The notes: generated by a model not told the origin, from the sequence alone. 63,492 bases of DNA, filler included, from Reclinomonas americana ATCC 50394 (GCA_048213135.1; 21 parts of 21 records of this genome joined end to end with filler, not necessarily neighbours in it), one strand, 5' to 3'; counted from the whole stretch's first letter, positions 14,272 to 56,400 are shown. Made by a program: numbers and translations.

Positions 14272-14980
14272 ATGTCACTCTCAAGGCAACGTTGCCTCCT
14301 TATGTCGCTGTCTGCCTCTCTGTCTGACAGTGTGTGCACATACACACAGGTACATTCCACCCATCAACTTTGCCAACGTGGAAGAGGACTTGTACCGATG
14401 TGGGCAGCCTTCTGAGCTCAACTTTCCCTTCTTGGAGCGCCTCGAGCTCAAGAAGATCATCTATCTCGCCCCTGATGAACCCTCAGAAGCATTGTTATGT
14501 CACACACACACACACATTCCCTTCTCTCTCTCCCTCTCTCACACCCTTGTGGTGTCACAGTCAAAACTTTGTGCTCGACCAAGACATCACTCTCGAGCAT
14601 GTGGGCATGAGTGGTGCATCGATGCTGATGGGACCCATCACGGAGACAATGGTGTTGCAGGCGCTGGAGCACCTGCTCGATGTCAACAGCTATCCCATGT
14701 GCATCATGTGCAACTTGGGCAGGCATCGCACTGGTCTGTGTGCCTCTCTCTCTCTCCACGCGCTGGCATCATCATATGTGTGTGTGTCTCTGACGTGGGG
14801 GGTTCTTCAGGCACGGTGGTGGGCTGTTTGCGCAAGCTGCAGCGATGGAACCTGACGTCGATTCTGGAGGAGTATCGGCGCTTTGCCGGCTCAAAAGTCC
14901 GTCTGGAGAACGAGCAGTTCATTGAGCTGTTTGACACGGATCTGGTGCGTTTGCCGGCGGCCAGACCCAAGTGGATTTGA
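14272..14980 (+). CDS. OCA1/Siw14-family (PFA-DSP) tyrosine phosphatase, spliced; start uncertain
   Basis: YIPPINFANVEEDLYRCGQP..LNFPFLE; P-loop CNLGRHRTG; VVGCLRKLQRWNLTSILEEYRRFAG; GT-AG introns restore frame. Confidence 0.9.
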
Positions 14981-15033
14981 GCGGCTGTCGTCGTCGTAAA
15001 AGAGGGCGATTTGTGTGCGTCATTGAGATTACA

Positions 15034-16739
15034 CTATGCTTCTGTAGCTGTTGCTGCTGCTGCGACAGGTGCCTTTGTCGCCCTGTCGCTGTCACCCCGG
15101 GGGTGTTCCGCCGCCGCCGCCGCGCCTTCATCCTCCTCTTCCTCGTCGTCTGTGAAGCGGCCGCGCATGTCGGCGTCGTCTTCCTCAGACGACGGGACAG
15201 GCAGCTCGCGAGTGCGATGATTCGCGGATATCACCGAGGCGACTGGTGCTGGTGCTGGTGCCGATGCCGATGTTGGTGGCGGGGCACGATTCCGTTTCGG
15301 TGGTGGCTGCTCGAGCGTGGGTACCGCCACCTGCACCACCACGTCGTCGGGCCGAGTCACGCTGCGGTCACTCGGCGACTCGGCCGTCTCTTGCGCCACG
15401 CCGAGGAGTCCGGAGAGGCGCTTGAAGGTGGCGCTCGACGAGTCCACGTGGCTGCTCGACGAGCGAGCCGAGCGCGGAGAGTGAGGCCCACCGGAGCGTG
15501 CCGATCGCGGACTCGTTCCGGCAGAGCGACTTTCATCGCTCCGGACGCGAGAGTGACGGTTCAGCGACAGCGGCGGTACCGTGACCGCTGGTGCTGCCGC
15601 TGCAGCGTCGGCGTCGGCGTCGTTGGTGCTCCCCGAGGTTCGTCGGGCGCTGAGTGGACGCTGTCGCAGCCATTCGCGCGTCTCCTCGGCCGTCATCAGC
15701 GCGCCGTCGCGCGGATGCTCCAGCGATTGCGTGCGCTGCGAGCGTGCCGAGTGATTCGATCGATGTGACCGCTCCGAGTGCTCGTCGCCGTCATGCTGAG
15801 AGAGAGAGAACACAAAAGTCAACGCACGATCGACACGGACAGAACCGATCAGCGGCACTCACCGCATCGCGCGCACGGGGCGAGCGAGACACTTGCAGCG
15901 CGTTTGGCGCCGACGCCCGAGTGCGCGACAACGACTCGGGCGGCGGCTGAGACGAGCTCGATCGTCGACTGCTGCGCGATCGCCGGCTCTCCACCGATCG
16001 CCGACTTTCATGCGATCGTCGACTGGCCGTATCGTCAATGCTCCGACGCGACGAGCGCGATCGCGACGACCGCACATCGTCATGCGCCGACGACCGATCA
16101 CCACGCGGTGTCGAGGCCTTGTTCCGCCGTCGGAATCCCTGCTCGGCCTCCAGTTGATCCGACTGTCGCCACCCGCTGCGCGCACACACACACAAGTCAC
16201 CACCAACGGAATCGCGCTCAACCGTGAGAGAGAGAGAGAGATAGAAACGCACCCCCGGACGACGACTCCATTAGCAACCGCGGGCTGCTTGCGAGCATCG
16301 CGTCGGCGTCGCTCAATGTCCGTCAGATCCGTCACCGAGGTGACACTGGCCGACAGCCGCTGAATAAAGTTCTGCGCGCACACTGTGGCGTGAGCGATCC
16401 AGCAGCGCAAACCAGCACGCAACATGGCGCATGTACCTGTCGCGCAACAGGATCCTCAATGAACTCGGCCGTGGCCAGCGCCAACAATGCTGTGTGACGT
16501 TACTCTCTTTGTGTCACCACCGACCGCCATCATCATGACCATAACAAGGGAGCGCAAACGCAACATCGGGTCGCCCGCGAGCTCTCTCGAACGCGCACTG
16601 GCGTTGGCTCGGCGATGACTCCGTTCGGAGGCGATGAGGGCGCGTGGCCTCGGTGCTTGTGCCGATGCGCCCTAGGCGACGCGCCATGGCGAGCAGCAGA
16701 CACCTCGCCACCGCCTTCCCCATCGACGCCACTGCTCAC
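15034..16739 (-). CDS. Uncharacterised Ser/Arg/Pro-rich spliced protein
   Basis: Consecutive ORF segments joinable by GT-AG introns; convergent with the phosphatase gene. Confidence 0.45.
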
Positions 16740-18051: not shown

Positions 18052-21000
18052 ACTGAGTCGCACGCTGCCCCAAATCGACCTGGAATACACTCCGCACAAC
18101 TGGGGCCGGTGAAGTTTCCGTTGCAGATGCATCCAAGAGTGGCGTCACAAGTGGAGTTGCTCGGACTGATTGTAAAAGGTGAGAAGTGCGACGACATGCA
18201 TGACATAATGAACAGCGCCGCGAGTGCCATACCATGCGGCACAAATGGCAGGCGGGATTTCACAGTTTGTGCCAGAGTACCCTGCATCACAACCTGCGCA
18301 GAGTAATGTGTGGGAGGCGTGAATGTGGGACCGTATTGGCTATCGGTTGTCGGACTCACTGCAATTCCCTTGATCATCATAGTGGCCGTGGCTGCTGCAT
18401 GTTTTGGTCAAACAAGTCCACTCCAGTCGCAGGTACTTGAATGTTGCGGGACACTACGGGTTCTCCCGCCGGTTAATTCGTCGCAAAGTCGATGCGACAT
18501 CAGATGAGGAAACAAGACTTACCGGATCGCCTTGATTGATCTTGTTGACGTTGCCGTCGAGCGCAGGGAATTCGTAACACCACGGCGTCGGCGTGGTGTA
18601 CGAAGGCGTTGCGAACTGGCACAGCAGGCGCAAGTGCCACGTTACGTCTGAGACACATGTGGTGGTCGTGGTGTCCAGGCCAGTGGAGCCAGCGTCGGCG
18701 CAGACAGTGGCTGTTGACGAGATAGGTGAGCATTCTTGTCGGCAGGAAGCGACGACAATATGCAACGCAACCGGAATCGCGACCCCAAAAGGCCGACTGT
18801 ACAAACACGTAGGAGCCGGTGGGACATGTTGCGCGCACTGCATCACCACCCTGGCAACTGGCGGACACCAAGAAGTCTTGCGGGTGGCAGTCCTCGCCAG
18901 TGTAGCCCGGCAAACAGGTGGCACAATCAGTGGCGGGATCGCGGTTTCCATTGCAGGTGCACATGCCGGTCCCCGTTGCCCCGGCGTTGCATAGGCCACC
19001 GTTGGTACACGGCCGACACTGATTTTCGCACCGGGCCCCCCAGTAATTGCCCTGGCAAACACAGCTTCCGTCACCTCCAAGTCCATCGTTGCATCTGCAA
19101 CAGCGAGGTCAGCCACTGTTGTGCACTTTTTTTGCCGTGCAGCAAGCATACACACCGTGCGCCATTTTGGCACTGACATACACCGCTGCAGGCTGCTCCG
19201 AATCGCCCAGCGAGGCATGTCGTGCAGTTTGTGGCAGCATCAAATCCACTGGTGCATCGGCACACGCCAGTGCCAGTGGAGCCGTCGGAACAGGTGCCTC
19301 CATTGACACATGCAGGACACACTCCGCTGCAGGTGGTGCCGTAGAAACCAGGCAGGCACATGCATGCCCCAGTGCCAGTGAGGCCATCGGAGCAGCTGCA
19401 GATGTGTGTGTGTGTGTCAGCCACCACACGCGCATGTTGTGAAGTCAACGCGACACCGTACCTCGCATTATTGGCGCACGCACATTGGCCAGCGCAGGCG
19501 GTGCCAAAGCGACCAGGAAGGCACTGAGAGCAATTGGATGCAGCAGAGAAGCCAGCGCTGCAGGCGCACTTGCCAGTGGCGTCGCATGTGCCTCCGCCAT
19601 TGGTCGAATTGCAGTCTGTGTTCTTGCATTCACACTGCGTACATCGTGAGCGCCGATTACAGCCTTCGCCTCTTTTTTGCTGCTGCGCACTCACCAATGG
19701 TCCAGCGGTGCCTGCTGGACAGATGCACGTGTTTCCAGTCGCGCTGCATGTGCCGCCATTGCGGCATGTGCACGGAGCGGTGTTGCTGACAGTGATGCTA
19801 GGCGATCGCGCCACCACAATGTAGCCTCCCGTGGGGTAGTTCTGGAAGCCGCGAACCTCCCACGTCGTTCCAAGTACGGCCGAAGTAGGCATGGTCAGCA
19901 TCATGGTGCCTGCAGCGCGTCCACTCAAATACGCCCACTGCGACGAAATAACAAAGTGTCCGCAACACAACAGTCACAGGTGCGGCAGCGAGAGAATGTG
20001 TGCGTACCACGCTGACGGACGAGCTGAGGGCGGTCGATTGCACCAGGTTGATCCAGTCTGTGGTTGTGGTGGCCGGGAATCCACTCCATGTCACCGACAC
20101 GGAGCCGCCCGGTGCAACAGTGGTAGAGCCAACACCCAGCGTGGGCACGTTTGGAGCTGCTCGAACATTTCAGTTGCAAGCCGTTATCGTAAAGATCGAC
20201 ACACAAGCGACCGACTCACTGGTGGCACTGGAAACAATCACTGGCCCAGCAAGCGCGCCACTGTGTTGACGCACAAGTCCGGCAGCATTCTGAAACTCCA
20301 CACGGAAGTAGTAGGTGCCGGCGGCCAGTCCGGTCAGTTGCACAGTACTGGTGATCCCAGGCGCCGCAGCATACGAGCCAACATCGTCCTTGGTGAGAAC
20401 TGCGCTGCCTGTGAGGCTGGTGTACACCATAATCCTGCGCCACACCATCGTCAATGTCTGAGAAGCATTCTACTGCATGAAGATAAGATGTTCACCTGCG
20501 GCGAGACAGCACGCTGCCTCCGCTGTGCGGCGGATGATTCACGGTAATCGCCACGGTCCCAGCAGTGCTGCTGCTAACAACAACGCTCGGTGCGCTGAAC
20601 GCAAACGGTGCAACTGCAATGGTCCGTGAGCAACTGGCAGCACCATCACGCGTGTTGGTGGTGGTGCACGTACCGACAATGTTGGAGCCACTGATGACAA
20701 GTGAAAAGTCTTGCGCACCCAATGGGGTGGTAATGGCGCGCACTCGCACCGAGTACAAGCCGGCGGAAACTGCCGACAGCACCACACGCTCCTGAGTGTG
20801 CGCACCATCCCACGTATCCTAATCATTGTTACTTTCGTGAGCACGGGAAAGAGAGAGATGTCGTCATGGAACTTGTGTGGTGCACTCCACACACACCGTG
20901 AAGCCGAGGAGCTCATTTCCACGCTGCAGCGAGGTTCCAGCGGCTCCAGTGCCGGCAAACACAGCGAGGTCGAGATCAGAGACCAGCGCTCGACTGTTGG

Positions 21001-23457
21001 CCGTCGCCGGTGATGATGGCGGAAAGTCGGTCCACACCAGAGACAAGGAGATGCGCGGCGAGGCGGCAGATATGAAGAAATCGGCGACGAAATCCTGCCC
21101 CGCTGCTGTCAGAGGCACGTCTTCGGCCGCCAGCACAAATGTCTGTGCAGGCGCCAGCACATTATCCAACTCGACGAGACCCCAGCCAATGATGGTGGCC
21201 CGCTGCGTGTCCGACAGCGACGACAGCGGTTGTGCGCCCTCTCCATTCACTGTTGCAGCGGTGGTGAGCGAGGTGCGTCCGCAACACTGATGGTTACTGA
21301 AAATGTCGGCACTCACCTCGACCACCATAGTTGCCATTGATGGGTCTTGCAGCATTCAGCAGGGTCGCGCGCAGAAGAGAGCCAGGGGGCGAGGCAAACG
21401 GCACCGGAGGCACAGTGGGTGATCCGATCGTTGGTGGTCCCGGGTACATTGTGCGGAAGTATTGGCGAAGTTGAGCGGCGACTCCGGCCACCACAGGTGC
21501 CGCAACACTGGAGCCTGCCATGACGGCGCTGTGCGTGAAAGCCGCCGCGGACGTCAGGCTGCTGCACAGAGGGGACGTTGCTGCGCGCGGACTCCATGCA
21601 CGAGCGGATCGGATCCACCATCCACTGCGTTGCGGAGGTAAGAAAACAGAAAATCGCACGAGAATAAACATGCACACTGGCAATCGACGCAACGGAGCCA
21701 TCACCGAGACACCGCTTCGTCCGTCAGCCGTCGGTCCGCGAGCCGACAACGGAGCGACAGTGCTCGCATCGACTCCGTTGCGAGTGGCTCCCACGGAGCA
21801 CACGTTTTTCGCAGTGGCCTCGGGCGACAACGAGCTGGCGTCCGTGCCGCTGCCGGCGGCCGTGACGATCAGCACATCTTTGCGCTGATTGGCAAACGTG
21901 TCAATCGCCAGAGCGACGGCGTCGTACGAGCCACCGCTGCCAGTGGAACCCCAGGCATTCACAAAAATGCGCGCTCCGTTGTTGTACGCAGCTCCCAGGT
22001 ACTGCACGTCGATGGCGTCGGGCAGCACAATGGAGAGTGCATCTGAGGGGCATCGGCCGAGTGGCATCGAGTTGCACAAGCACGAGACACCTGTTGGGCA
22101 CTGACAGCCAGCCGCCGACGAGCAACCAAAGTCGAAGATCAGCAGGCGAGTCTTGGGAGCGACTCCTGTTGTGAAAAGTAAGAAACGTACGACTGGAAGA
22201 GAATGAAGCGAGACACCAACCATTCAGTGGCAGCAGCGTGGTGGCCGTTGCGTCTCCAGAAACTGTGCCGGCCACGTGCGTTCCATGACCCGTCGGCGAG
22301 TCTACGCGATCCATGAAATCGACGTAGCCGAGAACCTTGCGATGAGCAGAGGTGAATGTGAACCCGCTGGCGGCAGAGCGTGTGTATTGCACACTGGCAC
22401 TCGTGTCCACAAAGAAGCAGGCGCTGGTGTCGAGACCGGCGTCGGCGACGGCCACCACTTCGTTGCTTCCATCCAGAACGCCAGTGTAGGGCTCGGAATT
22501 CACCAGACCCGACTGCACGACCCAGCGCGCGTCATTGACAGCGGCATGTGTGCGTACTGGCATGACCTTTTCGATCCATCGCACGTGCGGCAGCGTGGCC
22601 AGCACCTGCGCACCCGAAAAGGCCGCGTGCTCACTCTCAAACGTGAATAGCACCACTGGGTGTGCCGTGTCGCTCACAACGCGCACATGCACGAGTGACG
22701 ACGCCGCCTCGTCTCCGAGTTCTTCCGCCAGCGTCTCTCGCACAATGCTCAGTAGTGAGCGCTGACCTTCGTCGGCCTCGATCACCATGATGACGCGTAG
22801 TACGGTGGCTTCTACCGTGGCTTCGGTGTGCACACGCAGAGCAGGCGACAACTTGTGCTCCACCAGCAGCGGGGTCGACCACACCACCAGCGGCGACAGC
22901 CGTCGCCGAACGGCAGTGGGTGTGGCAAACACCATGTACCCGTTGTCGGGCACATATAGCACATGGCGCAACTGGGGTCGGCAGACGAAAGATTAGGAAG
23001 GAAGAGAGCGAGAGAGCGAGAGAGAGAGGGAGAAAGCGGACACCGAACGCAACTGGACTGTCGACTGTTTCCGCCACCAGTGCGTGCACTTCGGGCGATG
23101 CGTCGACGCCGTCAGCAAGCGCCACCAGTTGCCACTCCCGTGCCTCGTCGCCGTCCTCCGCTGCGACGTGCGTGCTGCTTACACAAAAAACACACAATCA
23201 GCGCTGCGCCCCGAATGCATGCGGCCACCATCATCACTCAACTGCAAGTCGGCATGGGGTGGCTGGTGTACGGCGTGACCATTGATGTGCAGCGTGGACT
23301 GAGGTGCGACACAAGAGCGAGTGAGTGACGCGATTGGTTGGGAGAGAGGAAAAAGACAACAACGCACCGCAGCAGCAGCAAAGCCGGCGCCACTCACGAC
23401 AGCCAACCCAACAACGACGAGGAGGAGCGACAGCGGCAAAAGTGCAACACGCCACAT
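18052..23457 (-). CDS. Large secreted S8 subtilase (KP-43/TagC-like) fused to an Fn3-like module, laminin-type EGF repeats and a SUEL-type lectin (3'-truncated)
   Basis: Signal peptide MWRVALLPLSLLLVVVG; VAVADAGLD, GHGTHVAG, MAGSSVAAP; GWGLVELD, LVWTDFP, LVSDLDL; repeated C..C..G.FG..C EGF units; CPTGSYVFVQSAFWGR. Confidence 0.82.
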
Positions 23458-27135: not shown

Positions 27136-27957
27136 GCAGCAGATGATGATGATGATGCAACAGCAACAGCAGCAGCAGGCGCAGGCGCAGCAGCAGATGA
27201 TGATGTCGCGGATGCATACGCCGCAGAGTTTGCCGTACTCGACGCCGTCGCCGGTGCCGTCGCCGGCCAACTCGTTGCGGCGGCGCGATGTGACGATGGA
27301 TTCGCCGTACATGGCGGACTCGGAGGTCGGCGGGCGAACGCCGTCGATGAATAGCTGTAGTTCGTCGCCAGATCTCGGATGGTCGCCGCTCAGTCGTGGG
27401 TCGCCAATGGAGGGTGGAGTGTCGTCGTCGAGTGCTATTCTGGCCAGCGCGCTCAATGCGGCGTCGCTGGCTCGGCGACGGGCTCCCGAAATCGACGAGT
27501 TGTGGGCCACGCTGTGCGCCACCTTTCCGCAGTACGCGCTCCTGCCGTCGTCGCTCCACGTTCCTGTCCTGCAGCAGCTGCTCGGTCCGACGCTCGAGGC
27601 CACTCTCGACTCGCTGCGCTTGATGGTTGGTGCCTGTGTGCTCGCCGCATCGCCGCCGCCGCTGTCCCTCACCCACATGCTCGCACAGCGATCGTCGCCG
27701 TCGTTTACCTCACCAGGTCATCGTCAGATCCGCATGGATGTTGCGTCTTGTGTGCGGCTGTGCGCACGCTGTGGGGGTGGCCGTGATCTGACTGAGTGGT
27801 GCGCGCCTCGCAGTACATGTGGCACGCGCTGGAGAATGCACCCATCAGCGGCAGTGTGCTCGACAAGCACGGCAATGTGCTGCTGGTGCGCCACAGCACT
27901 TGCCTCTCCGTCTGTGTATTCCGCTGCTCACCACGCATCGTCGCAGATGAACGAAAA
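26405..27957 (+). CDS. PolyQ/polyP-rich protein with the start of a PAS-like segment (3'-truncated; may continue into 28058-28839)
   Basis: Long ORF with Q, P and A runs; spliced exon YMWHALENAPISGSVLDKHGNVLL-MNE. Confidence 0.55.
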
Positions 27958-29570: not shown

Positions 29571-30616
29571 GCTTCCGACACCTTCGAAGTGTCTTCGTTG
29601 TCGGTGCTGCGCAGAGAGACCTTGATGCGATCGGGGGCCGAGTCGCCGGCGGCCGAGGCCACGGCGCCAATGCCACGCATGCCGTCGGCTTTGACGCAGC
29701 GAAAAACACAATTTACCAAACAGCCACCAAGAGATACAATTGCAAGCAGAGGAGGCACATACCGTGGCTCTTCTCCGCCAGCCAGTGGCCCAGATCGTTG
29801 ATCGGCACGCCGCGTGTGTCAGGCGGCAGCATCACAGCGTAGCAGCTGCCGAAGCGGCCCTCATTGCCTGGAGTGCGTGGGGGCAGAGTGAGCAGAGGAG
29901 GAGAAGAGTGCGAGTGCATTCATGGATTTCACGCAACTGCCGTCGACAGGACCGCCGAGGCGCAACACGAAGCGCTGCGCAGCAAAACGGGCCACCGTCG
30001 CTGCATCCTCCTGCAACTTCTCCGTGCCGCGCTTCACCATATTGTCGACATCCAAATTCATCAACTTGGCAAACGTCTGCTCCGGCTCGAAGCGCACGGC
30101 TCCCGCCAGCCTGGACTGGTGGAAACCGGCGCAGAATGCCTGCCAGCCAAGACCACAACAGTGAGTGAGCAGAGACAAGTGGGGGAATGAGAGAAAGAAG
30201 AAATATGCACGGACCTTGGAGTCGGCAAACTCCCACTTCCAAATGTCGCCATCCTCAATGTACTGGAACGCGCGATACACGACAGCAGCGCGCTCCGGAG
30301 ACGTGGCGAACAGGCGGGCGGCACGAGTGATGGCTGCGTGCACAGGTTACTCAATGAAGCAGGAAATAGAGAAGTGGTGGGGGTGGTGGGCATGCGCACG
30401 TGACTCATCGCTGGGCGCTCCCACACGCGCCGCAAGCTTCGCAGCAAAGTAGTTGAAGGAGAGCATGGCGCCGCTGCGGTCCATGTGCAGGTGGATGTCG
30501 GTGTTATTTGGAAGGGTTCCCCACTGTGGGATAATATGGGGAAGGGAAATGAAGGAGAAGGGATGAGTGGTATCAGCAATTGCAAGTCGTTTTGCATTCA
30601 GTGAAGTGGAGAGGTA

Positions 30617-30667: not shown

Positions 30668-31570
30668 ACGGNNNNNNNNNNNNNNNNNNNNNNNNNNNNN
30701 NNNNNNNNNNNNNNNTTAATTAATTAANNNNNNNNNNNNNNNNNNNNNNNNNNNNNNNNNNNNNNNNNNNNGGTGAGCGCAGCGGCACTGTTTCGACATG
30801 GGAAGGATCCGCAACATGCAATCAACAACGACAGCGGCCTTCCCTTCCGTCTTTTCTCCCCCCCACACACCTGACGACACTTATCAATCTCGCGCACAGC
30901 AGTCAAATGGTGATCCAGCAGCACCACTTGCGCATTGGGAAAGCGATGCGCGACTGCCGCAAACAAGTCGGGCGATCCCACACAGTCGACAAAGTACACG
31001 GCGCGAGTGGTTTGCGGATCGCCGGGAATGTCATTCGCCGTCGTCTTCACGTTGTGCTGGTACGGGAAGAGTGCGACGGACTCGCCACTGATCATCACCA
31101 TGAGAGAGTAAGCCACAAGTGATGCAACGTCTGATGCACTCTATCTCTCTCTCTGTCTCTTTCTCTCTCTCTCTGCGCCTGTGTATCTGTCTCTCCTTCT
31201 CTCCCTCCTCTCTCTCTCTCTCTCTTTGGTGTGTGAATGCAGAAGAATGCACGCAACACTCGCATGTGATAGGCGTGTGCGGCAAAGGCGGCGTAGAGGC
31301 CATCGGGGCACTGTGCATGTGTGCGTGTGAGCAATGATGTGCATGAGAGCGATAGGAGGCACACAAGCACCGACCGGGTAGTGATAGACGACGACTGCCG
31401 AGGGACCTGCCGCACATGCGTGCAACATGAGCAAGTGAAAAGCGAGTGTGTGTGTGTGAGAAAGAGACAGAAGGCAGCAAACCGGTGGTTTCTGCAGCGC
31501 TGATGGCACTCGCAGAGAGGCCCAGCGTGGCCAGCAGAGGCGGGAACGAGCGACACAGCCAGCGCAGCAT
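29489..31570 (-). CDS. DHH/DHHA1 phosphoesterase (NrnB-like), split by linker, possible organelle-targeting N-terminus
   Basis: VVYHYP-CPDGLYAA, VYFVD, LLDHH, MDRSGAMLSFNYF, YIEDGDIWKW, KVSLRS, YGGGGH. Confidence 0.85.
30619..30663. repeat. (GA)n microsatellite at contig end
   Basis: Direct reading. Confidence 0.95.
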
Positions 31571-31778: not shown

Positions 31779-31849
31779 GGGCCCATGGTTTAACGGTAGA
31801 ACATCGGTCTACGGAACCGGAGACCAGGGTTCGACTCCCTGTGGGCCCT
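31779..31849 (+). tRNA. tRNA-Arg(ACG), 71 nt, U73
   Basis: Acceptor GGGCCCA/TGGGCCC, D arm GTTT/GAAC, anticodon loop CT-ACG-GA, T loop TTCGACT; poly-T terminator downstream. Confidence 0.93.
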
Positions 31850-32023
31850 CCTAATTTTTTGTTTTTTTTTGCTTCAAGCGATAGCTGTCGTGCTGTCAAA
31901 GCATTACGAAGCAGCAGTGCATGTGTTTTCCTCTCCAGAAGATCGACAACAGAATATATAATACGTGTTGTTTCTGAATGCGCATAAATGCGATCGCGAT
32001 ATCGAAACAGGGCTCCTGATCGC

Positions 32024-32575: not shown

Positions 32576-32783
32576 NNNNNNNNNNNNNNNNNNNNNNNNN
32601 NNNNNNNNNNNNNNNNNNNTTAATTAATTAANNNNNNNNNNNNNNNNNNNNNNNNNNNNNNNNNNNNNNNNNNNNGCAAAGTCCAACAAACCCGAACAAA
32701 AAGTCCGAAACGGCTGCGTTTTCTCGCTGCGCCCAAACTTCCACGGAACCCGCCCTTTCCGACCGCCGTACCCTCCACGAATG

Positions 32784-32854
32784 GGGCCTCTAGTTTAACG
32801 GTAAAATGTCGGTTTGCAGCACCGAAGTCCGGGGTTCGACTCCCTGTGGGCCTT
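32784..32854 (+). tRNA. tRNA-Cys(GCA), 71 nt, with G1-U72, U6-G67 and a C7/U66 mismatch
   Basis: Cloverleaf; anticodon stem TCGGT/ACCGA, loop TT-GCA-GC; U73; T5 terminator at 32858. Confidence 0.85.
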
Positions 32855-33211: not shown

Positions 33212-33243
33212 CCTTTTTTGCTCCCCTCACATACAAATAAAGG

Positions 33244-38978: not shown

Positions 38979-40471
38979 TCATACCCACTTACTGCCCGTA
39001 TTCAGCATGTGCGATTGGTGCTTGGGTAGTGGCAGTGGATTCTCGTAGTAGGCGGGTCCGGGCACCTTGGTGATCTTCGGGGGACTGATGGCGCGCTCGG
39101 TGCCACTCATAAACACAGAGGAGGAGATCAGGCGTGGCGTGTTGGCGGTCCGGCCGACTTCGTACTCGCCTGGACCGAGTGCTGGCGTGATGGCCGTCGA
39201 TCGGCGCTGTAGCACGTTGCCGAAGCGATCGCGCCCGTCCACCACGAATGGTCTGGTGAAGGGGCAAGCAACACAATGAGCGGAGGTTGCTTCACGCAAA
39301 GAAACACGACGACAACGAACCGTGACGGTTTCGGTGGACCTTGCACCAGCGCTGCTGATGCCGCCGACGCCGCCGACGGGTCGGAAAAGTATGTACCCGG
39401 ACCCGGCGGTCCCTCCGTGCTCCCCCTGCGCGCATGCAATCATCATCATCATCAGCACTCGGCACACACACCAGAGAAAATGAGGCAGCACCCGAGCGAA
39501 ACTTGGATAATAGCGCCGCAGCTGGCGTGGCACGGCGCTTGGCCGACAACGACGGCCGCTCAGTTGTTGAGCGGAACACGCTCGACTGCAGCGTGGTATC
39601 CTTGTACTTGGGTCCCACATCCACCTGCGGCGAGTACACTCCCGGTCCGAGACGCGGATTCGACGACGCCGCCACCGCATCGGCCAGCGTCCGTCGCGGC
39701 GGAGCCACAAACGACGATTGCGCGCCTGCCCGTGACGTACCCACCGAACCCTTGCTCGTCGTCTGCGTCCACCAGTCAGCAACCCAACCCCACAGTCTCC
39801 GACTCACATGCACTCAACATCGTACTCTCCAGGACCCGGCACCGCCTTCCTGTGCCTCTCCGGATCAGCTAACCGCGTCTCCTTGAACACCGCCGACGGC
39901 GCAGTCGCTCCACGACTCCCAATCGAGTCCGCGCGGTACTGACCAGGCGCCGGCGGGTTAAACGTCGGCCCGGGCGCCTCCCACCACAGCGAACTCTGCA
40001 CACGCTCCCTCTCAGTGACACACGCACACACACACACACACACACTGCTCTCTTCTCTATACCTTACTGGCCATGGCACCATATCCACGCTTGGAGAAGC
40101 TCTCCGCAGCACGCGCAGGCGCCGCAGCAGCAGTGTACGCACCCGGTCCCGGATTCTCATCCTGCCACACCCAGTCAGCTCCCTCCGTCTCTCTCTCTCT
40201 CTTGGCCTCATTAACACACGCAATGATGCACCTCACTGTACTGAAATCGCTCTGTGCGTCCCAGAAACCCGTCGGCCTCCTTGTACTGATTCGTGTTGAG
40301 CACGGTCTCGTACTTGGATGGAATCGAGGCTGTCGCCCGTCCAATCGGCACATAACCTGCAACCAAACAGTGAGACAAGCATAACACAAGCACACATACT
40401 CTCTTGTTTGTATGTGTGAGTGTACCCTTCCTGATCCGCCCTGTGGACGATCCGCGAGGCCGCTCGGTCAT
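38979..40471 (-). CDS. SHIPPO-repeat ciliary protein, STPG1/MAPO2-like
   Basis: Repeated PGPG.Y motifs (NPGPGAY, PAPGQY, PGPGEY, GPGVY, PGPAYY); SIPSKY, GFLGRTERF, SFSKRGYG. Confidence 0.8.
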
Positions 40472-40576: not shown

Positions 40577-43374
40577 ATGGACGTTACTCAGCTCCTCAGC
40601 CTCCTGCGCCTGCGGTATGTGCTGTTGTTGTTGTTGTGGGTTACACTGATGCATGCATGCACTTTTGTCTCATGTTATTTTGTGTGCATGCAGCTGCGAG
40701 CAGCGCTTTGCCAACCCGCGTGCGCTGTTCCGCACGTTTGATCTTGATCGGTGCGTGTGGGCGTGCGTGGGAGTGGGGGAGCGCGTGCGGAGAAAATGTT
40801 GGGTGTGTGTGTGTGCCATGACGCACTCTCACTTTTTTTGCCTTGTGCACGTAGCGCATCGCGTTTGACTCGCAAGCAAATGACCGATGGCGTGGCCACG
40901 TTGCGTCTTCTGACAAGCATGCGCTGTTTAAAGCGAGATTCTGACTCTGGCGCACAGGGTAACTGGTGTGCAGATGAACGACTCACAGGTGTGCCTCTCT
41001 GTCGCTCTTGGTGTGTCTCTGTGTGTGTGTGTGGGTCACTCAAGCGCGCTGCAGGCCAATGAGTTCTACAACTTTTTCGATTTGGACGGTGGGTGTTGTC
41101 GCCTAAGGGTGATTGCATTGCCCGTATCCGCTCATTGTCTCTGTGGATGTATGTGCAGGCGACGGCCAGGTGTCGTACTCTGACTGGATCTCGGTGTTTG
41201 AGCGCAAGGAGACGTTGCGTTTCTGTCTCTCTCTTTTGATTCCTCCTTCTCTGTGCCAAGCTGCTGACTGCGTGATGTGTGTGCAGTGAGATCGTCCGCC
41301 CTGCGTTGCGTCATGTGCTGCAGGTCACGCGCTCGGATGCTGCCGCGATCCTCACTGTTTGCTGCATGTAGATCGGCTGTGGGCTCGGTGACCACGCCGT
41401 CACGCGCGGCTGTGGCAGGCACGGTGAACTCGCCTGGTCTGAAGCTGGCCGCCGCGTCGGGTGCCTCCTCGCCCACCGGCAGCCGCATCTTCCCGACTGG
41501 ATCGCCCGCTCGCCCGGGCTCTGCTGGTCCCTCGTCGGCTCGGTGAGCACATTCTGTGGGAGTGTTTGCATTCCGCGTCGTTGCTCACGTTGCTGCAGCA
41601 CTCCTCGTGACGTTGAGCCGCCGCGCCCCGGTGAGCCGCAGTTGGGTGACATGCTGAAGAAGCTGCGCGATACGCTCGCACGCCGCGGCACCACCACCAT
41701 TGCTCGCCTCGGCAAGGCCTTTGGCATCAGTTGCGCTGCTCACTCACCACACCAAGAGACGCACTTTGCTTGTCTGCACGCTGCTGACGACATTGCTTTC
41801 ATGCAGTCGACGACGATGGTTCCAAGTCGATCGACGTCCCCGAGTTTAAGAAGGTGCTGCGCGAGTACGGCATTGAGCTGTCGAACACCGAGTTCGAGGT
41901 GCTGCGCCGCCACTTTGATCGCAACAACGACGGTGTGATCTCGTACGACGAGTTCCTGTTTGCCATTCGAGTTTCGTGCACGCCGCGTATTTTCCGATCT
42001 CTCAACCCGGGCTGCTGACACTGTGTGTGTGTATGTGATTTGTCGTGTAGGGTGAGCTGAATGCTCGCCGTCGTGACGCCGTGTGGCGCGCGTTCAAGAT
42101 CCTCGACACCAACGGCAACGGTGTCATTGAGTTGGACGACATTCAGGCCAAGTACAACGCCGCCGGTCACCCCGACGTGCGCTCCGGCCGCAAGACCGAG
42201 GCGCAGGTTCTCCGCGAGTTCCTCGACACGTTTGATGCGGGCGAGAAGGACGGTCAGGTGCACCTCGACGAGTTCGAGGAGTACTACTCCGCCGTGAGCG
42301 CCAGCATCGACACGGACGACTACTTTGAGCAAATGATGGACTCGGCGTGGAACCTGCAGCACACGCACACGAAGCGCCAGTTGCGCCACTCTCCATCCAT
42401 CTCCACCCTTTGTTCTTGCAATACGAACCTCACTCTCTTTCTCTTATTCTCTCTCTATCTCTCGTGTAGACAAGGTCGCCGTGCCAACGAGGAGGCGCAG
42501 GCTGCGGCCACGGCTGCCGCTCGCAGTGGCCGTCGCGCACAGCCGACTCGCGCCCCCCTGGCGGTGCTGGAGGTGCTGGAGAACATTCGTCAGGCCATGA
42601 AGCGCCGCGGAACCTTTGACATCGCGTCACTCGGCCGCGCCTTCAAGATCTTCGACGACGACAACTCAGGCACGCTGTCGGCCGACGAGTTTGCCAAGGC
42701 CATGAGCGAGCGTGGCATTGACCTGTACGATGCGGAGCTCACCGAGCTCATGCGATACTTTGACCGCAACGGCGACGGCTTCATCAACTACGACGAGCTG
42801 CTGCTGGGCCTGCGAGTGCGTGACATGCCTGTCAGTCGAGTGCATACATCGACTCGGGTGTGCTCATGCAGTTGTTATTGTTTGACAGGGCGACCTGAAC
42901 GATCGTCGCAAGAAGGCTGTGCGGGAGGCGTACGCACGTCTGGACTTTGACAACAGCGGCGAGGTCGACATGCGCGACATTGTCGGCCGGTACAACGCAG
43001 CGGCGAACCCCGAGGTGCGTGCCGGCAAGAAGACCGAGCAGCAGGTGCTGCGCGAGTTCCTCGACAACTTTGATCAGGGCCAGAAGGACGGTGCGTGGAG
43101 GCATGCCTTGAGCAGAGCGGAGTTTTGATTCTCATCGTTCTCTTGTTGTTTCGGATCGTGCAGGTGTGGTGACGCTGGAGGAGTTTGAGAAGGCGTGTTC
43201 GATGTTGAATTCTGTTGCATTCAAGAGTGCGTCGTTTCCTGACCCTCCTTTTCTGTGATATTGCAGTACTACGCCAATGTCAGCAGCAGCATCGACAGCG
43301 ACGAGTACTTTGAGGCGGTGCTGGAGAGCTCGTGGAGGGATCGCTCGAACCCACGACGTGGCGTGGCTTTCTGA
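40577..43374 (+). CDS. Multi-EF-hand calcyphosin-like protein with a duplicated calcyphosin module
   Basis: EF loops DDDGSKSID, DRNNDGVIS, DTNGNGVIE, DDDNSGTLS, DRNGDGFIN; two copies of YNAA.(H/N)P.VR.G.KTE.QVLREFLD.FD...EF..YY..VS.SID.D.YF; about 14 introns traced. Confidence 0.87.
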
Positions 43375-43584
43375 GCATGCACACTGCTCCACCCCCCGAC
43401 TGTTCGATTGTTGTTCTTTTTCCACCCTCTCCACTCTTTGGTCCTTTCGGCCGCAAAGAAAACACGAAACGCCATTCTTCGATGCTGACAGGCAGAGTAA
43501 AATGGTGATGCGCACACACACACATACGTCCCTCCGTCCATCGCTGTCCTGGCGGAAGATTGTCGATTGATCCTCATTCCTCGC

Positions 43585-45526: not shown

Positions 45527-47192
<1,666 letters not shown>

Positions 47193-47300
47193 CTGTGTGT
47201 NNNNNNNNNNNNNNNNNNNNNNNNNNNNNNNNNNNNNNNNNNNNTTAATTAATTAANNNNNNNNNNNNNNNNNNNNNNNNNNNNNNNNNNNNNNNNNNNN

Positions 47301-49505
47301 TGCGTTTCCATGTCTTTGCAGTGCGTCTCATCACGCGTTTTTGTGTATCGTGCAGGCACTTGCCAGTCTGACCAAGAAGTACGAGACCATCACCGACTCG
47401 TTGATGTCGATCGAGCTGCTGGTCGACGGCAAGATGACAGGACGCAACCCCCTGCTGCAGTCGTACTATGGGCACTGGGAGAAGCGTGTCTTCCGTGCAC
47501 TCTGCAAGGTGGGCTGTTTGTTTTGGCAACCTCTCCACCTCCTGTTTCCTCACGGCCAACCCCCCCCCGCTGCGTACAGATGGTCATCAACAGCCTGAGC
47601 AAGATGCACCAGTACGTGAGACGTAGCAGCAAGGAGCTGCCGCTGTTCCGTGCTGTGCTCGAGCTGAGTCCGCCCGATGTGTTGGTGGAGCCGACAAAGG
47701 AGGACATGGAGCGAGTGCTTCGCCGCATTCCGGACAAGATCATTGAGAGCACGAAGCAGTTTGTGCGATGGATGCGCGGCACTTGCATTCCGGTGACGCA
47801 GGGCCAGATCGAGGCCGAGAACATGGGCGACGATGACGACACGCTGGCCGCAGTCACCTTCTTCCCCGACATCCAGTTGACGCCGCAGATCTCCAAGCGC
47901 CGCCGCGTGGTGCAAAAGTCCATGTCGTACGCTGTCAATGCCATTGAGCAGATGCGTGCCAAGTGGAAGAAGCACTTTTCGTTGTTCTGGACGCAAGACA
48001 GGGTGAGTGGTGGTGGTGGCAGTGTGTCGTGATCTTGCGATGGTGACCTGATGCGTGACTCGACTGCAGAACATGACGGCCGACAACTACAACATGGAGA
48101 TTCGACAGGCCATTGTCGAAGGCCGCAAGTCGCTGGGCGAGTCGGCCGATCTCGAAAAGGATCCACCTCTCATTCCGCTCACGGTTTGTGGATGTCTTTC
48201 TTTTCTTTTGTGTGTGCTTGTCGTCGTCTCACAGTCGCTCTTGTGTAGCAATTCGAGAGTGAGTTCCTGGATCTGGAGGGCTTCTCGCACCAACTCGATC
48301 ACTACTCCAAGATCGAAGTGGTCAATTTCATCAGCGTGGACCGTGAGAAGCTGATGGAGGCCATTCACGCGCAAGTGCGCAGCTGGATTGTCGCCTACGG
48401 TTGGTTGGACGTTGAAAGAGTGGCTCCTTTGTCCTGCTTTCGTAGTGTTGCTCACTGCTCTCATTGGTGTAGGCAAGCATGTGCGTGATGCAGCACAGGC
48501 GCTGGCGGTGTTTATCGAGGACCAGATCCGCGAGTTCAGCGACAATCTCGCCCGACCCACCAACGAGGTGGACGAGCTGGAGTTTGTGCTGAATGTGTTG
48601 GCCGGTGTCAAGGAGCGCGCCATGGAGGTCGAGATGAAGTTCAAGAACGTGCTGGATGCGTACGACTTGCTCAACGCGTACAATGTACCGTTTGACGCGG
48701 AGGAATTCGAGTTCGCCGTGGCGCTGCCCGACAAGTGGATGCAGCTGTTGGACGACGCCGAGGATTTGCAGAATCGACTGGCACCCATCAAGGAGCAATT
48801 CAAGGATGTTGCGTCTGCCAAATGCCTGTCGCACGCTGACTTGTGTGCGTCACGTGCCTGACCTATGTGATTTGTTGGTTTCGTGCAGACAACTCGCGTC
48901 GAGGCGAGCAAGTTCCACGCCGAAGTCAAGGCGTTCCGGCAAAAGTTCTTCGAGCACGGCCCGGGTGTGGGTGAGGTCAATCTCGATGGTGGACTGGAGA
49001 AGATGGAGTGGTACCGCACCGAGTTGGCCCGCCTGCAAGAACTCAAGTGCGTCCCACACTCAACATACAGTGTGTGTGTGCGTGCGTGCTTGCAACTCAC
49101 TGTCGTGTATCGGTTGTCGTGAATCAACAGGGACAAGAACAGCAAGTCGGAGCGCCTGTTTGACCTCGAGGTCACCGAGTATCCCGAGTTGATCGAGGTG
49201 TCCAACAACATGGAGAAGCTCAGCAAGATGTACGACGTGTACGCCAGCTGGAAGGTGTGTGTCTCCTCTCTCATTCCTGTCCAATCCGCGCCTATTCGGA
49301 CGCTGATGAATGCCGTTTCTCTCCCACGATGTGCAGAGCACCCTTGAAAAGTGGTCGCGCACGCTGTGGTCCGAGGTCAACATTGAGGAGATGATGCGCG
49401 GCACGCAGTCGTTCATCTCCAACATGAGCAAGAGTGCCGATCTGAGACCACTGCGCACGCACCACATTTACAAAGCCATTGACGATGCCATCAAAGCGTG
49501 CGTTG
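47301..49505 (+). CDS. Axonemal dynein heavy chain tail fragment, DNAH10 (inner arm I1 alpha)-like
   Basis: YYGHWEKRVFRAL..MVINSL, PLFR..LEL.PP, ESTKQFVRWMRGTC, F...GPG....LD.GL, ERLFDLEVTEYP, WSRTLWSEVN. Confidence 0.8.
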
Positions 49506-50290: not shown

Positions 50291-51647
50291 ATGCACAGAC
50301 CGCCATTGCTGCTGCTGCTTCTGCTGGTGGCAGTGGTCGCTATAGTGGTGGTGCCAGCAGCTGCGCAGTTGCCGGGCATGTCTGCGCGCTCATATGCAGG
50401 CAAGTTCACTTTCGTTTTTTCGCCACTGTCGTCATGCACACACACACACGAGTGCACTCTCACTTGCACATGCACACACATTGTGAGAGAGCGAGAGATG
50501 GTAGCATGTGTGCTGTGTGGCAGAGAGTGTGTGTGAGAGAGCGATGGCCATGGCAACACCCTGCGTGTGTGTCACACGTGTCTTGGCGCGCGCTGTGTGC
50601 GCTTGTGCGTGTGCGAGTGTGATCATTCACACTTTGAGCGTTCGCGGTCGCAGACGATGAGGAGCTCGACTTGAAAGTCAACGCGTTGACATCGTCCAAG
50701 GTGCGTGTCTCTCTCCCTCGATCGAGTTGTCCTCACACACACACTCTCTCTCTCTCACTGCACAGACACAACTGCCGTACGAGTACTACACTCTGCCGTT
50801 CTGCCAGTTGCGTCGATGCTGCGGCGCTTGTCATTCTCAATCAACGCTGCTGACTTGCACATTCGCAGACCGAAGGATGGCATTCGTCAGGCGTCGGGTG
50901 CGGACAGAGTGCAGTGGGGGGAATCGCTCCTGCATGTGCTGTTGGCTGACTGTTGCTGGCGATACTCACAGAGAACTTGGGCGAGTTGCTCTTTGGCGAT
51001 CGCATCGAGAGTTCGGCGTACACGGTTGCGTTGTGGAGCGCGTTCTGGGTGTGTGAATCGCAAGCGATCTTCTAAATCGCGTGCACACAGCTCAAGATGA
51101 TGCAAAAGAAGACATGCAGCATCCTGTGCGATCCGACATACGACGCCACGCAGATGGCGGCCTTTGCACAGCGCATTCAGGAGGAGTATCGTGTGAACAT
51201 GTTGCGTGGCGGCGTCGATTCGATTCGGTGAGTGGCTGGCTGGCAATTCACTTTCACTGGCGCAGGTTGTTGGACGGGTTGCCGGCGTCGGTACTCAAGG
51301 GCAGCGGCACTTACGAGATCGGCTTTGAGCTGGGATTCCTCGGCGATCCAGAGGTTACTCGCTTGCCACGCGCGTGTTTGTGTGCGTGTGTGTTCCGTCA
51401 TCCTCACGCCCGTGGCACCGCAGCTGTACCCCAACACAAAAGCCAATGTGCCATACATTTATAATCACCTCGATTTCACCGTCAAGTACCACACTGAACC
51501 GTCGTTCACGGGCAAGCGTGTGGTGGGCTTCGAGATCAAGCCCGTCAGGTATGTGCTCGGTTTTTTCCTCTTATCATCCGATCACGACACACTCACCGAC
51601 CATTGTGTCGCCAGTGTCAAGCACGAGCCTGATCCAGAAAAGCCCCT
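50291..51647 (+). CDS. Transmembrane 9 superfamily (EMP70/nonaspanin) protein, luminal part
   Basis: Signal peptide, LPGM, LKVNALTS.KTQLPYEYY.LPFC, ENLGELLFGDRIESS.Y, EEYRVNMLLDGLP, YIYNHLDF.VKYH, RVVGFEIKP.SVKH. Confidence 0.92.
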
Positions 51648-51839: not shown

Positions 51840-51932
<93 letters not shown>

Positions 51933-52854: not shown

Positions 52855-53465
52855 TTTCGTGACAGGTTGCACCTCCATTCCCGGCAGATTTCAGCAACAT
52901 GCTTCCTGTGCCCGATGCCCAGGTCCGTTCAGCGTGCCAGCTCACCATTCGATGGCCACGAATGTGTTCCACCACCTCCCGAATATACTTCCGAGTTACT
53001 CTGAACTTCCATCGAGCAAGAGGCTTCACGAAATTTGGACCAAAAACCCGCCTGGGGACCCCGTATGCCGGGTTCCGTAATTCCCCCGGTCAGTCCGATC
53101 CTGCTGCCCGTTCACCCGTCACCCATACACCCGGCGGGTGCAATGGCTGGGTGGACAATTGCGCTCGCACTCCCACGGACGTAACGCACCGACGGACGCA
53201 CACGTGTACACACGCACTCGGCCGCAGGCGGGGGGTTTTATTGAAGACCCTTAACAAGCTGGCAAGCGCAGCGCGCAGCACGCAAGAGGTGAGAGGCAGT
53301 GTGCGTGTGCGCACGTGTGTGTTGATCCTCAATGACCACAGTACTAGTTCTTGTAGTGCACGTATAAGTGAGCGAAAAGATGTGTTTGGGGGGTGTGTGC
53401 ATGGAAATGTCTCGCACTCGCGCGCCTCTAACTTATATTTGCGCGCTCGCACAGCTTCAGCAAAC

Positions 53466-56400
53466 ATGGCGACTGCGCCTGCTGGGTTTTTGTTGCTCTC
53501 GGCGGGCCCGGTGGAGCACCCACTGCCCATGGATCCGTGGCAGCAAGCTATCGACGCGCTCGCCGACGAAGCGCAAGCATCGCCAAGTTTGCATGCCTTG
53601 CTTCTTGCGCAGCGACTGGCCAATGTTGGCAGCCCAGCGCCAGATGACTTCAAGCTCCTTTGCGAGATCGGCGCAGATGACTTGCGCCCTCTACTTGAGC
53701 GGAAAGCACGTCGTGGGCACAGGCCTGATCATCAGTGCGCATTCGCGTTCGAACCATACATCCGCTCTCTTTTCGTTACGTGCTTGTCGTGTCGATGCCT
53801 CGGCCTCTCTCTCTCTTGCTCACATACTTGTGAAACATGCAGCTTCATCGACTGCTGGTGAGCAAAGATCAATTCATGGCGTCTCTCTCACCGGAAAGGC
53901 GTCGCATTTGCGAGGACTTCCAGAGGGACGTTGTTGTGTATGAAACGAGAAATGCAGATGTATTGTTGAGCGAGGAAGGTGAGTGATGAGTGAGGAGAGC
54001 TGTACGCTCCCTGCGGTTGCCATTCAGAGCTTAATTACTTCGCACCACAGTCTCCGCCATGCACGCCGCACTCGTTTTTACATATGTGGGAGAGAAGACT
54101 TCACGTGGTCGACCCGACAAGGAGCGCAGATTCGATCTGCCGGCCACCAGCGACGCGCGGCTGATGTTTCTCCTCCTCCTCGTCGTGCAGTTGCGAAGTG
54201 ATCGATCGGTTCTTCTTCTCTGCCGCAAGACTACTCACCGTCCTGGCTGTGCGTGCATGCCCAGTGCGCCCAGCTTGTTCGCTTCGACGGACCTCGCACA
54301 CACGACTGCACTGCTAGGCACTGTGCAGGAGGCATTCAAGAGGCTCTCAGCAGGATCCCGCGCTGCAGCTGGCCATGGAAAGAAACCGGCGCTGGTGGTG
54401 CCCTCTCACGTCCAGGACTTTGCCACAACCGCGTCAATTTGCCTCCTACGGTGGAACGTCACGCAGCAACAAGTTTTCTGTGTGCCACCCGAGACTCTGG
54501 CAGCTGTGGATTTGGTGGCAGAGGTCGGCCGCCTCATGAGTCGAGCAGGGGATGGCATTGTGGTCGGCTTGGCGCAAGCCATGAAATCCAAGTTGTCGCT
54601 TCGAAAGTGCGCGCGGATGCCTAAAGTTGTTGTAGGTGATGTCTCGTGATAATTTACATGCCTTTGTGTTTCCGCAGCTATTTCTCCACCCCAATTTCGC
54701 TTGTGGTGAAGGAGATGCTGCAAGTCATTCGCGACTCGGACCTCTCCCGACTCAGGTATGTTGAACTTTATGTAGACAACACTGTGTAGAGTTACATCTA
54801 ACTGTTCACGCTGGCGTGCAGTGATCATGACGTGGATGTCGTCCACCTGTACGTGCGCGACGAGACGGAGATCGACACAAAGGAAAAGGGGCGCAAGTTG
54901 TTCGAGTCTGGCGCTGTGGGACACTCCTTCGCGGGCTTGTGCGACAAANNNNNNNNNNNNNNNNNNNNNNNNNNNNNNNNNNNNNNNNNNNNTTAATTAA
55001 TTAANNNNNNNNNNNNNNNNNNNNNNNNNNNNNNNNNNNNNNNNNNNNGACAAGAGGATGACTTGCTCCTTTGCAATCACTCACCACACCGCGCACCTGT
55101 GGCTATGGTGCACAGATGACGCGGACCTCGTTGTTCTGCGTGAAGCCCAGCAGAATGCACTGTTCTTGTCGTTCTCTTTCGCCTACATCGGCCAGGAACC
55201 TGCAAGTGCCTACGCCGATGTAAACGACTCTGATGCCGTGAAGCGGTTTCTCGACCACCTACCACAAGCACAGTTGAGGTCAGGGAGCGACCCGTTTGCC
55301 GAAGCGCAACTGAGCCTGGCCACGTTGGCATTCCAGAATGGGCATGCTTCCTTTGCCAGGCTGCTGCACGTGATGACGGATGTGATGCTCTTCGATGGTG
55401 TGTGCTATGCGTGTGTGTTGACTGTGTGTTTGGGAGTGACAGGGACAGGACAGCTGACTATGGTGGATTGATTTCACAGAATTCTACAGTTCATTCGAGG
55501 CCGGTGACGTGGACGCAGCTGAAGCTGTCGTCGCACATGTCGATCGCCTGCGACGGTCGTCCGCCAAGCTGGCGGAGAAGCTGCACGACGCGCTGCAAGA
55601 CTGTCGTTACGTTTCTCTCTGCCATTGGCCAATGCGAGATTTTTCGTTTTTCTCACTCTTTCTCTTTTCGCTTTCTCTCTCCTGTATGCTGCACAGGTGA
55701 CCAATGCAGGAAGCTGGTGTGCGCGCTCTTCCCGGCCGCACCATCAAAGAAGAAAAAGGAGCCCGTAGGTGAGTGACACGTCCGTCAAGCGCGCGCGCGA
55801 AACCTGCATGGCGCACCACTCATACAGCACGTTGCGCTTACACAGCGAGAGCACCTGCTGCCGTGCCGGCGCCGGAGTCCTCCAGCTGCATCCTGAGCAT
55901 CTCCCATCCTGCGGTGCACGCCCCATTGCAACGACTCGCTGACTCGCTGCGGAGATGGGCTGCCCGACTGGCGGCGAAGTGTGTCACTGGTCAGACTTGG
56001 AAGGCTGCGTGTCGTGCAGACGCTAAGGCGTTGATTGAGTCGTGCTCCGCGTGCGTTGCCGATCTGTGCCGTGGCGCCTCAGTCCCGCTCTCCTTGGTGG
56101 CCGTTGCAGAGGCGTTGGAGAACGTCGTCGATCGGCACCAATGCGTGCGGGGGCCAGCTGCCGAGGAGAAGAAGGACGAGGAGGAGGATGAGGTGGAGAA
56201 TGAGGAGGAAGACGACGACGACGAAGTGGTTGACGAGGAAAGATCCATTCGAGGCTGTGCGTGAACCTTGCACTCTTGCGTGTGCCTCACACGCTCAGCT
56301 CACTGATTCTTTGTGCATGGTGTGTGCAGTGCTGTTGGCGCTCATGCGGTGCCTCCAACAGGANNNNNNNNNNNNNNNNNNNNNNNNNNNNNNNNNNNNN

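Follow-up and report, generated by a model that had tools for sequence, protein, structure and literature searches.

The window analysed here, a stretch of 63,492 nucleotides (nt) from the assembly of Reclinomonas americana ATCC 50394 (GCA_048213135.1), contains a frequent class of predicted 5' splice sites (donors) in which the intron appears to open with GTTGCGT or a close relative of this heptamer. The window consists of 21 contigs chained via N44-TTAATTAATTAA-N44 linkers, which appear as forty runs of 44 N paired around TTAATTAATTAA. Its first eight pieces (1-13433) are bacterial contigs of ~65% GC with uninterrupted, intron-less genes, among them those for hydantoinase B, LysR- and LuxR-type regulators, PrpF and gamma-glutamyltranspeptidase, and represent a contaminant or an associated bacterium within the eukaryote assembly. 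The remainder (13534-63492) is made up of GC-rich (~57%), intron-dense eukaryotic contigs, encoding a Y_phosphatase2 protein, a subtilase, a CoA-transferase III, a DHHA1 protein, an Sm/LSM protein, a multi-unit calcyphosin-like EF-hand protein, the proteasome subunit Rpt4, an axonemal dynein heavy chain and a TM9SF/EMP70 protein. The evidence base for the donor class is thus this 50 kb of eukaryotic DNA together with homologues of its genes, and all introns discussed below are predicted from sequence.

The GTTGCGT motif and its use as a donor

The initial annotation of the window listed 25 donors that carry an extra T after the GT, so that the conserved G falls at +6 instead of +5. All 25 motifs are present at their coordinates and on the strand given, as 17 GTTGCGT, 2 GTTGCGC, 2 GTTTCGT, 2 GTTACGT, 1 GTTATGT and 1 GTTGAGT. 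Counted over both strands, GTTGCGT occurs 30 times in the window, as compared to 14.75 ± 4.28 times in 100 dinucleotide shuffles, none of which reached 30. All 30 copies are located within the eukaryotic contigs and none in the bacterial 13.4 kb; relative to the predicted gene spans, 22 lie in the sense orientation, 5 are antisense and 3 fall outside.

The use of the motif as a donor was followed with our own dynamic-programming gene parser, in which coding sequence is scored by its 3-periodic statistics, introns by a composition model that ignores their first 8 bases, and acceptors by a matrix, with a bonus for a branch motif. It was run in three versions: donor-agnostic (every GT equal, exon side unscored), with a single donor matrix, and with a two-class matrix. 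The donor-agnostic parse predicted 29 genes with 151 introns, and the most frequent donor heptamer among these was GTTGCGT (12 introns), to which GTTGCGC added 3. Consequently, 12 of the 30 copies of GTTGCGT (40%) were used as donors, against 151 of 6623 for all GT dinucleotides (odds ratio (OR) 31, p 8e-13). The ordinary motifs GTGCGT and GTGAGT were used in 8/99 and 5/55 cases, respectively, and heptamers of the same composition as GTTGCGT served as donors at most once each (GTGTCGT 1/16, GTGCTGT 1/13, GTGGCGT 0/16, GTCGCGT 0/7). The frequency of GTTGCG at donors relative to background, a check named in the initial annotation, is raised, as judged both from the OR in a parse where donors were unscored and from the enrichment over shuffled sequence.

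The single-matrix parse returned 18 GTTGCG donors among 160 introns and the two-class parse 23 among 158, the latter figure rising to 30 (19%) if relatives matching GTT[GAT][CA]G are included. Across the parses the GTTGCG donors outnumber their unshifted twin (15-23 GTTGCG versus 8-15 GTGCGT). The parser is noisy, placing 5 of 8 Rpt4 junctions correctly in the donor-agnostic version and 6 of 8 in the matrix versions, and as false introns dilute the class we put its share roughly at 10-19% of the predicted introns (15-30 of 151-160). The class had been proposed to account for a fifth to a quarter of the introns; that it is frequent holds, but the figure was somewhat high. A cruder test, requiring only a branch motif followed by AG, was non-discriminating (background 29%, GTTGCGT 53%, GTGCGT 29%).

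Among the 25 listed sites, 17 were picked by the donor-agnostic parse, 19 with the single matrix and 23 with the two-class matrix; at 6 of them the donor-agnostic parse took an in-frame GT 3-40 nt away. GTTGCGT introns found by all three parses span 16490-16564 (-), 18711-18771 (-), 27740-27813 (+), 29868-29937 (-, in the DHH/DHHA1 gene, with flanking exons that have no Pfam match), 33354-33435 (-) and 37989-38046 (-). The same applies to the GTTGAGT intron at 39763-39818 (-). The GTTTCGT intron at 36101-36159 (+), situated in the low-complexity and unanchored tail of the Sm/LSM gene, was recovered by the matrix parses only. Two introns were returned by the two-class parse alone, i.e. 22972-23053 (-, GTTGCGT), where the other parses used an in-frame GT 12 nt downstream, and 55606-55696 (+, GTTACGT), where the agnostic parse used a GT 3 nt upstream. 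Conversely, two of the proposed donors find no support, as none of the three parses picked them: the GTTGCGT at 31251-31257 (-), already listed as less certain, and the GTTACGT at 53775-53781 (+), in place of which the parser favoured GTGCGC at 53735.

Further occurrences of the motif were noted in the course of the analysis. Seven shifted-type donors outside the original list, with motifs GTTGCGC/T, GTTGAGT, GTTACGT and GTTTCGC, were found by the two-class parse only (16883-, 17469+, 23242-, 25545-, 37308-, 38154- and 39502-). Unused copies of GTTGCGT lie at 13687-, 14048-, 36698+, 44284+, 44434- and 52648+; several of these precede a CTGAC-type motif and a CAG, and may serve as donors within untranslated regions or missed genes. 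At 16346-16448 (-), two GTTGCG copies 25 nt apart (16448, GTTGCGCG; 16423, GTTGCGTG) precede one acceptor and may constitute tandem alternative donors.

Placement of the junctions by homology

The junctions were further examined against homologues, which were collected with single-exon queries and turned into profiles; scores were then computed for all in-frame GT/GC-AG alternatives up to 45-60 nt away from a junction. Of the 25 sites, 13 were covered by the comparison with homologues, with support in 8 cases (14494, 21693, 41730, 41971, 48808, 50807, 51025 and 51201) and no decision in 5. No shifted junction was contradicted by homologues by more than 3 bits. Three of the junctions that had earlier been anchored on protein motifs, MAP/G (21693), AFGII/DDDGS (41730, placed here as AFGI/IDDDGS) and YRVNM/LLDGLP (51201), fit the homologues, as detailed below (a slash marks the junction).

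Three of the supported junctions are placed directly by alignment. In the Y_phosphatase2 gene, the exon 14351-14491 (47 amino acids) covers positions 1-46 of the family profile and the next exon continues from position 49; with one split codon the match is gapless across the GTTATGT intron 14494-14560 (+), which was also found by the donor-agnostic parse. The subtilase intron at 21625-21693 (-, GTTGCGT) is 69 nt long, in frame and stop-free, and was predicted by the two-class parse only. The alignment of the read-through open reading frame to PDB 1wmd does not extend beyond VMAP; the chain has VMAPG at this point, and its G is regained on splicing (VMAP/G). For the dynein intron at 48808-48888 (+, GTTGCGT), the upstream exon reaches residue 1298 of human DNAH10 (8j07_k8) at query position 110 of 111, and the downstream exon aligns from residue 1301 at query position 2, so that the junction falls gaplessly between residues 1299 and 1300. 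Alignment to the Chlamydomonas chain 8glv_Cn leads to an identical placement. Searches with the dynein exon query found no relative among metagenome contigs.

The TM9SF/EMP70 gene contains three supported GTTGCGT introns, 50807-50868, 51025-51090 and 51201-51265 (all +), scored with a profile built from 12 of 62 matches. The first ranked top of 9 alternatives by 3.0 bits and the second top of 31 by 3.2 bits, and the exon following the latter (51091-51198) corresponds end to end to positions 40-75 of the EMP70 profile. The third, with the junction YRVNM/LLDGLP, was top of 18; its margin was 5.2 bits against the GC donor at +3 and 8.2 bits against a GTGAGT 27 nt downstream. The TM9SF exon query gave no match in a word-indexed protein search, and a 40-base exon stretch no exact match among genome contigs or metagenome contigs.

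The calcyphosin-like gene (40577-43500, +) holds the remaining two supported junctions, scored with a profile of 49 of 78 matches. Its closest relatives are 800-860 residues long, and the named ones among them come from ciliates (Blepharisma, Stentor). The GTTGCGC intron at 41730-41806 (+), with the junction KAFGI/IDDDGS, was top of 33 alternatives and 7.6 bits over a GC donor 3 nt downstream, and the GTTTCGT intron at 41971-42050 (+) was top of 9 by 12.4 bits. The latter junction (AIR/GEL, cga/GTTTCGTG) has a paralogous counterpart within the same gene at 42816 that is unshifted (GLR/GDL, cga/GTGCGTGA). Four further introns of the gene, all on the plus strand and predicted by all three parses, were left undecided by the profile. 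At 40900-40957 (GTTGCGT, in the N-terminal part) the shifted donor was best by just 0.2 bits; at 41214-41286 (GTTGCGT) an alternative scored 1.7 bits better; at 41305-41371 (GTTGCGT) alternatives lay within 3 bits; and at 42380-42469 (GTTGCGC, in a linker between repeats) another pair scored 2.9 bits better. The gene also carries a GC-AG intron at 43193-43266 (+, gagaag/GCGTGT...CAG), which beats all GT alternatives by 11.7 bits.

The fifth undecided site is the possible last intron of Rpt4, 45540-45630 (-, GTTGCGT), which was returned by all three parses. The closest relatives of this Rpt4 are 78-83% identical, one of them from a Heterolobosea transcriptome, and the profile comprised 74 of 120 matches. 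Seven of the eight Rpt4 junctions are fixed with margins of 8 bits or more. The eighth, 45630, falls in the unconserved C-terminus, with alternatives within 0.4 bits.

Anatomy of ordinary and shifted donors

The seven fixed Rpt4 junctions (gene span 45540-47199, -) provide a view of the ordinary donors: aag/GTCTCT, gag/GTGAGT, aag/GTCTCT, cag/GTGTGT, gag/GTAATG, ttg/GTACGC and aag/GTTCGC. All seven follow a G and six of the seven an AG, and a consensus on the intron side is nearly absent. The usual donor, which had been taken to be GTGCGT/GTACGT/GTGAGT/GTATGT, is consequently better described as G/GT with a loose intron side (e.g. GTCTCT, GTAATG, GTACGC and GTTCGC in Rpt4). In keeping with this, unshifted GTGCGT served as a donor in 5/24 cases after a G and in 3/75 otherwise, indicating that a strong intron side does not replace the exon G in the ordinary register. 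A gene of tandem Ig-like (Big_9) repeats at 59214-61326 (-) has one intron per repeat, each located after GAAG, and the intron starts vary among the paralogous copies.

The two-class model separates the donors clearly. Its class 0 has G (.72) as the last exon base followed by GT, G (.63), any base, G (.78) and T (.71), whereas class 1 has no preferred exon base and reads GT, T (.85), G (.68), C (.76), G (.77) and T (.72). The suggestion that the shifted consensus is the ordinary one moved by one base is reproduced here, with T at +3, G at +6 and T at +7. T is invariably the inserted base: between 12 and 18 of the 30 GTTGCGT copies served as donors, as opposed to 0-1 of 24 for GT[ACG]GCGT. The exon side differs as well. 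In the parse that left exons unscored, a G ended the exon in 2 of 19 shifted donors versus 22 of 31 strong unshifted ones (p 3e-5), and at homology-anchored junctions in 1 of 8 shifted versus 16 of 17 unshifted (p 1e-4).

No corresponding difference is seen in the rest of the intron. The median length is 71.5 nt for shifted and 70 nt for other predicted introns, the branch motif CTGAC/CTCAC occurs in both, and the distance from the branch A to the 3' end is 19 and 21 nt, respectively. A C at acceptor position -3 (CAG end) is present in 26/30 shifted and 102/128 other introns, and the base composition is equal. The intron bodies are unrelated; in an all-against-all BLAST comparison (E<0.01), 2 of 804 high-scoring segment pairs (HSPs) link two shifted introns, and the matches listed are CT/GT microsatellites. 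With the same 3' anatomy and unrelated bodies, the shifted introns form no intron type of their own and are not copies of a single element; it is the 5' end alone that differs. In combination, these data support the existence of a distinct and frequent donor class with its conserved G at +6 and a T at +7. Its simplest summary is one seven-base motif, G-[G/T]-TGCGT, cut 5' of its own GT.

Recognition of the shifted donors

During splicing, U1 is first to find the 5' splice site, and U6 and U5 take over later. With slightly better than even confidence, we consider the shifted sites to be genuine GT-AG introns of the ordinary (U2-type) spliceosome whose 5' splice site is read with a one-base offset. 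Recognition would then involve the seven-base motif G-N-T-G-C-G-T that the strongest ordinary donors also carry. Where N is G, the cut would follow the first G (G/GTGCGT); where N is T, the sole GT would lie one base upstream and the cut would precede that G (/GTTGCGT). In the shifted class, G+1 of the intron would take the slot of the last exon G, opposite U1 C9, U+2 would face C8 unpaired, and U+3, G, C, G and U would fill slots +2 to +6, the near-invariant GCGT potentially compensating for the lost pair. The cut would be set at a later stage, since the catalytic centre requires a GU, and one base would be looped out opposite U6. We infer that U1 is the reader, that its register is shifted and that U6 then takes over; the absence of the exon-end G, together with the inserted base always being T, favours a full shift over a simple bulge.

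Several observations weigh against this reading. The junctions depend on gene models throughout, each intron being predicted, and homology anchors just 8 of the 25 sites, three of them through margins of 3-5 bits with a profile of 12 sequences, with 40900, 41214, 41305, 42380 and 45630 undecided. Moreover, G is rare before GTTGCG also at copies that are not donors (4/40), so the shifted class is better regarded as being without G enrichment than as depleted of G. An A at -1, the expected partner of U10, is only modestly raised and present in just 8-9 of 19-25 donors. At +5 of the shifted class the ratio C:A is 23:2, while the matching position +4 of the unshifted class is variable (C:T:A ~15:19:9); with C near-fixed at one position and its counterpart variable, the class is not simply the ordinary consensus plus a T. 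Finally, the textbook U1 5' end pairs with the shifted class at -0.98 kcal/mol, as compared to -2.58 kcal/mol for random GT and -4.79 kcal/mol for other donors.

The last point bears on the identity of U1. The value of -0.98 kcal/mol is a mean obtained with RNAduplex for the best register, and thus weak in any of them, and 7 of 30 shifted donors place G+1 on C9 in the textbook duplexes, although the host U1 may differ. The plain picture of the same U1 in a shifted position thus fails unless U1 itself differs, and the poor pairing with GUUGCGU makes a changed or a second U1 plausible. The U1 5' end of the organism may differ at positions 5-6; an invented end with G-C at these positions is predicted to reach -6.4 kcal/mol for the class, a value that is a prediction only. 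That something in 5' splice-site recognition differs in this organism is a reasonable, albeit unproven, proposition. Rfam models, searched at the gathering threshold and at E<=1, found no small nuclear RNA gene in the window and returned three transfer RNAs (tRNAs) only. These are two copies of tRNA-Arg(ACG) and one tRNA-Cys(GCA), clustered inside 1.5 kb at 31779-33213 (+) across a contig join.

The alternative that survives best, which we regard as possible but doubtful, is that a second, dedicated U1, or a U1 5' end with one extra base complementary to GUUGCGU, pairs with these donors in register, so that two readers feed one major spliceosome. The heptamer is conserved as a unit, which is in line with such a reader, as is the poor fit of the textbook U1 in any register. 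Likewise, a hypothetical 12-mer with one extra base is calculated to pair at -8.9 kcal/mol with the class, versus -4.8 kcal/mol with random GT and -6.7 kcal/mol with other donors, yet these pairing energies come from invented sequences. An in-register reader would also be expected to favour G at -1, which is found in only 2 of 19-30 donors. If this alternative did apply, there could be two parallel 5' splice-site readers, G/GT being read by the ordinary U1 and GUUGCGU by another U1-like RNA (or by a U1 with an altered 5' end). About a seventh of the introns would then owe their definition wholly to the intron side, with the cut one base off the ordinary register; to this two-reader arrangement we likewise assign a low probability.

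Considerably less probable is a bulge register, in which U1 pairs normally with the exon side and with G+1 and U+2 and one of the two U residues bulges out. Here two adjacent U are present, either of which could bulge, and a bulged +2/+3 U has been validated in human cells (PMC4856993). However, such a register predicts an enrichment of G at -1, where 2/19 was found against 22/31 in unshifted donors, and the bulged base need not be U, yet T alone occurs.

Of nearly the same low standing is the view that the class is an artefact of mis-traced gene models or chance, with the true donors at nearby GT or GC dinucleotides. The noise of the parser (5-6 of 8 Rpt4 junctions right), its choice of an in-frame GT 3-40 nt away for 6 of the listed sites in the agnostic mode, and the two sites left without support (31257 and 53775) all speak for it. 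Against this stand the OR of 31 in a parse where donors were unscored, the 22 sense as opposed to 5 antisense copies, and the eight junctions that fit homologues with none contradicted by more than 3 bits. A homopolymer sequencing error turning GTGCGT into GTTGCGT was rejected, as it would neither remove the exon-end G nor strike donors so selectively.

We also find it improbable, to a slightly greater degree, that the class represents transformed minor-spliceosome (U12-like) introns or mobile introns (introners). A long invariant intron start without exon-side consensus is indeed a property of U12-type introns, but the start of these is unlike the GTTGCGT motif, and the class does not differ from the other introns in branch motif, spacing, length, composition or CAG end. 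The introner variant is further opposed by the dissimilarity of the intron bodies, with 2 of 804 HSPs (E<0.01) between shifted introns and CT/GT repeats among the matches listed. Least probable of all is a set of GC-AG introns, with exons ending in GTT and introns starting with GCGT: that alternative is in frame every time and one GC donor is known in the window (aag/GCGTGT at 43193, by 11.7 bits), but it scored lower than the GT donor in 4/4 tests (by 7.6, 3.0, 5.1 and 5.2 bits, with the GC at +3), is inapplicable to GTTATGT, GTTTCGT, GTTGAGT and GTTACGT, and yields VMAPF.G instead of VMAPG in the subtilase.

If the shifted-register reading is true, a large and uniform intron class in which the recognition register and the cut lie one base apart would constitute a natural experiment on the hand-over from U1 to U6/U5. 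The exact choice of phosphate by the spliceosome is still studied via rare human sites and mutants, and the class would reveal the tolerance of U1, U6, U5, Prp8 and their helper proteins. On the practical side, gene finders with one donor matrix misplace such exon ends; our own single-matrix run missed 6 of the 25 listed sites. At the level of literature listings, no report was found of an abundant shifted class or of a GTTGCG/GUUGCG donor, which the organism's own genome paper may describe, nor was any paper found there that joins shifted-register splice sites with protists.

Among known systems, the closest likeness is to the shifted-register 5' splice sites of mammals, which Roca and Krainer reportedly described in 2009. 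These sites are summarised in PMC4856993 and PMC9311317, and the former, in its account of human cells, reports shifted and bulged registers as rare, in agreement with what the initial annotation had said of mammals. According to this source, +2/+3 bulges are predicted at 68 sites, and the validated non-canonical registers together account for 1.5% of 201,541 5' splice sites. The diplonemid donor, stated as (G)/GTATG in PMC12621601, is unlike the shifted class. U12-type introns share with the present class a long invariant 5' motif on the intron side without exon consensus, but here the 5' motif is a different one, and the branch site and 3' end are as in the window's other introns. Introner elements likewise provide many introns with identical ends, whereas the bodies here are dissimilar beyond microsatellites. 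The human +2/+3 bulge registers place an additional nucleotide between GU and the conserved G, as seen here, but the present class has lost the exon-side consensus and invariably carries U as the extra base. The mammalian shifted-register sites have in common with the present ones a GU at the cut, a consensus one base further in, and G+1 in the slot of the exon G; however, they are scattered, rare and A/U-rich, whereas the class described here is one fixed GC-rich heptamer in ~10-19% of the predicted introns.

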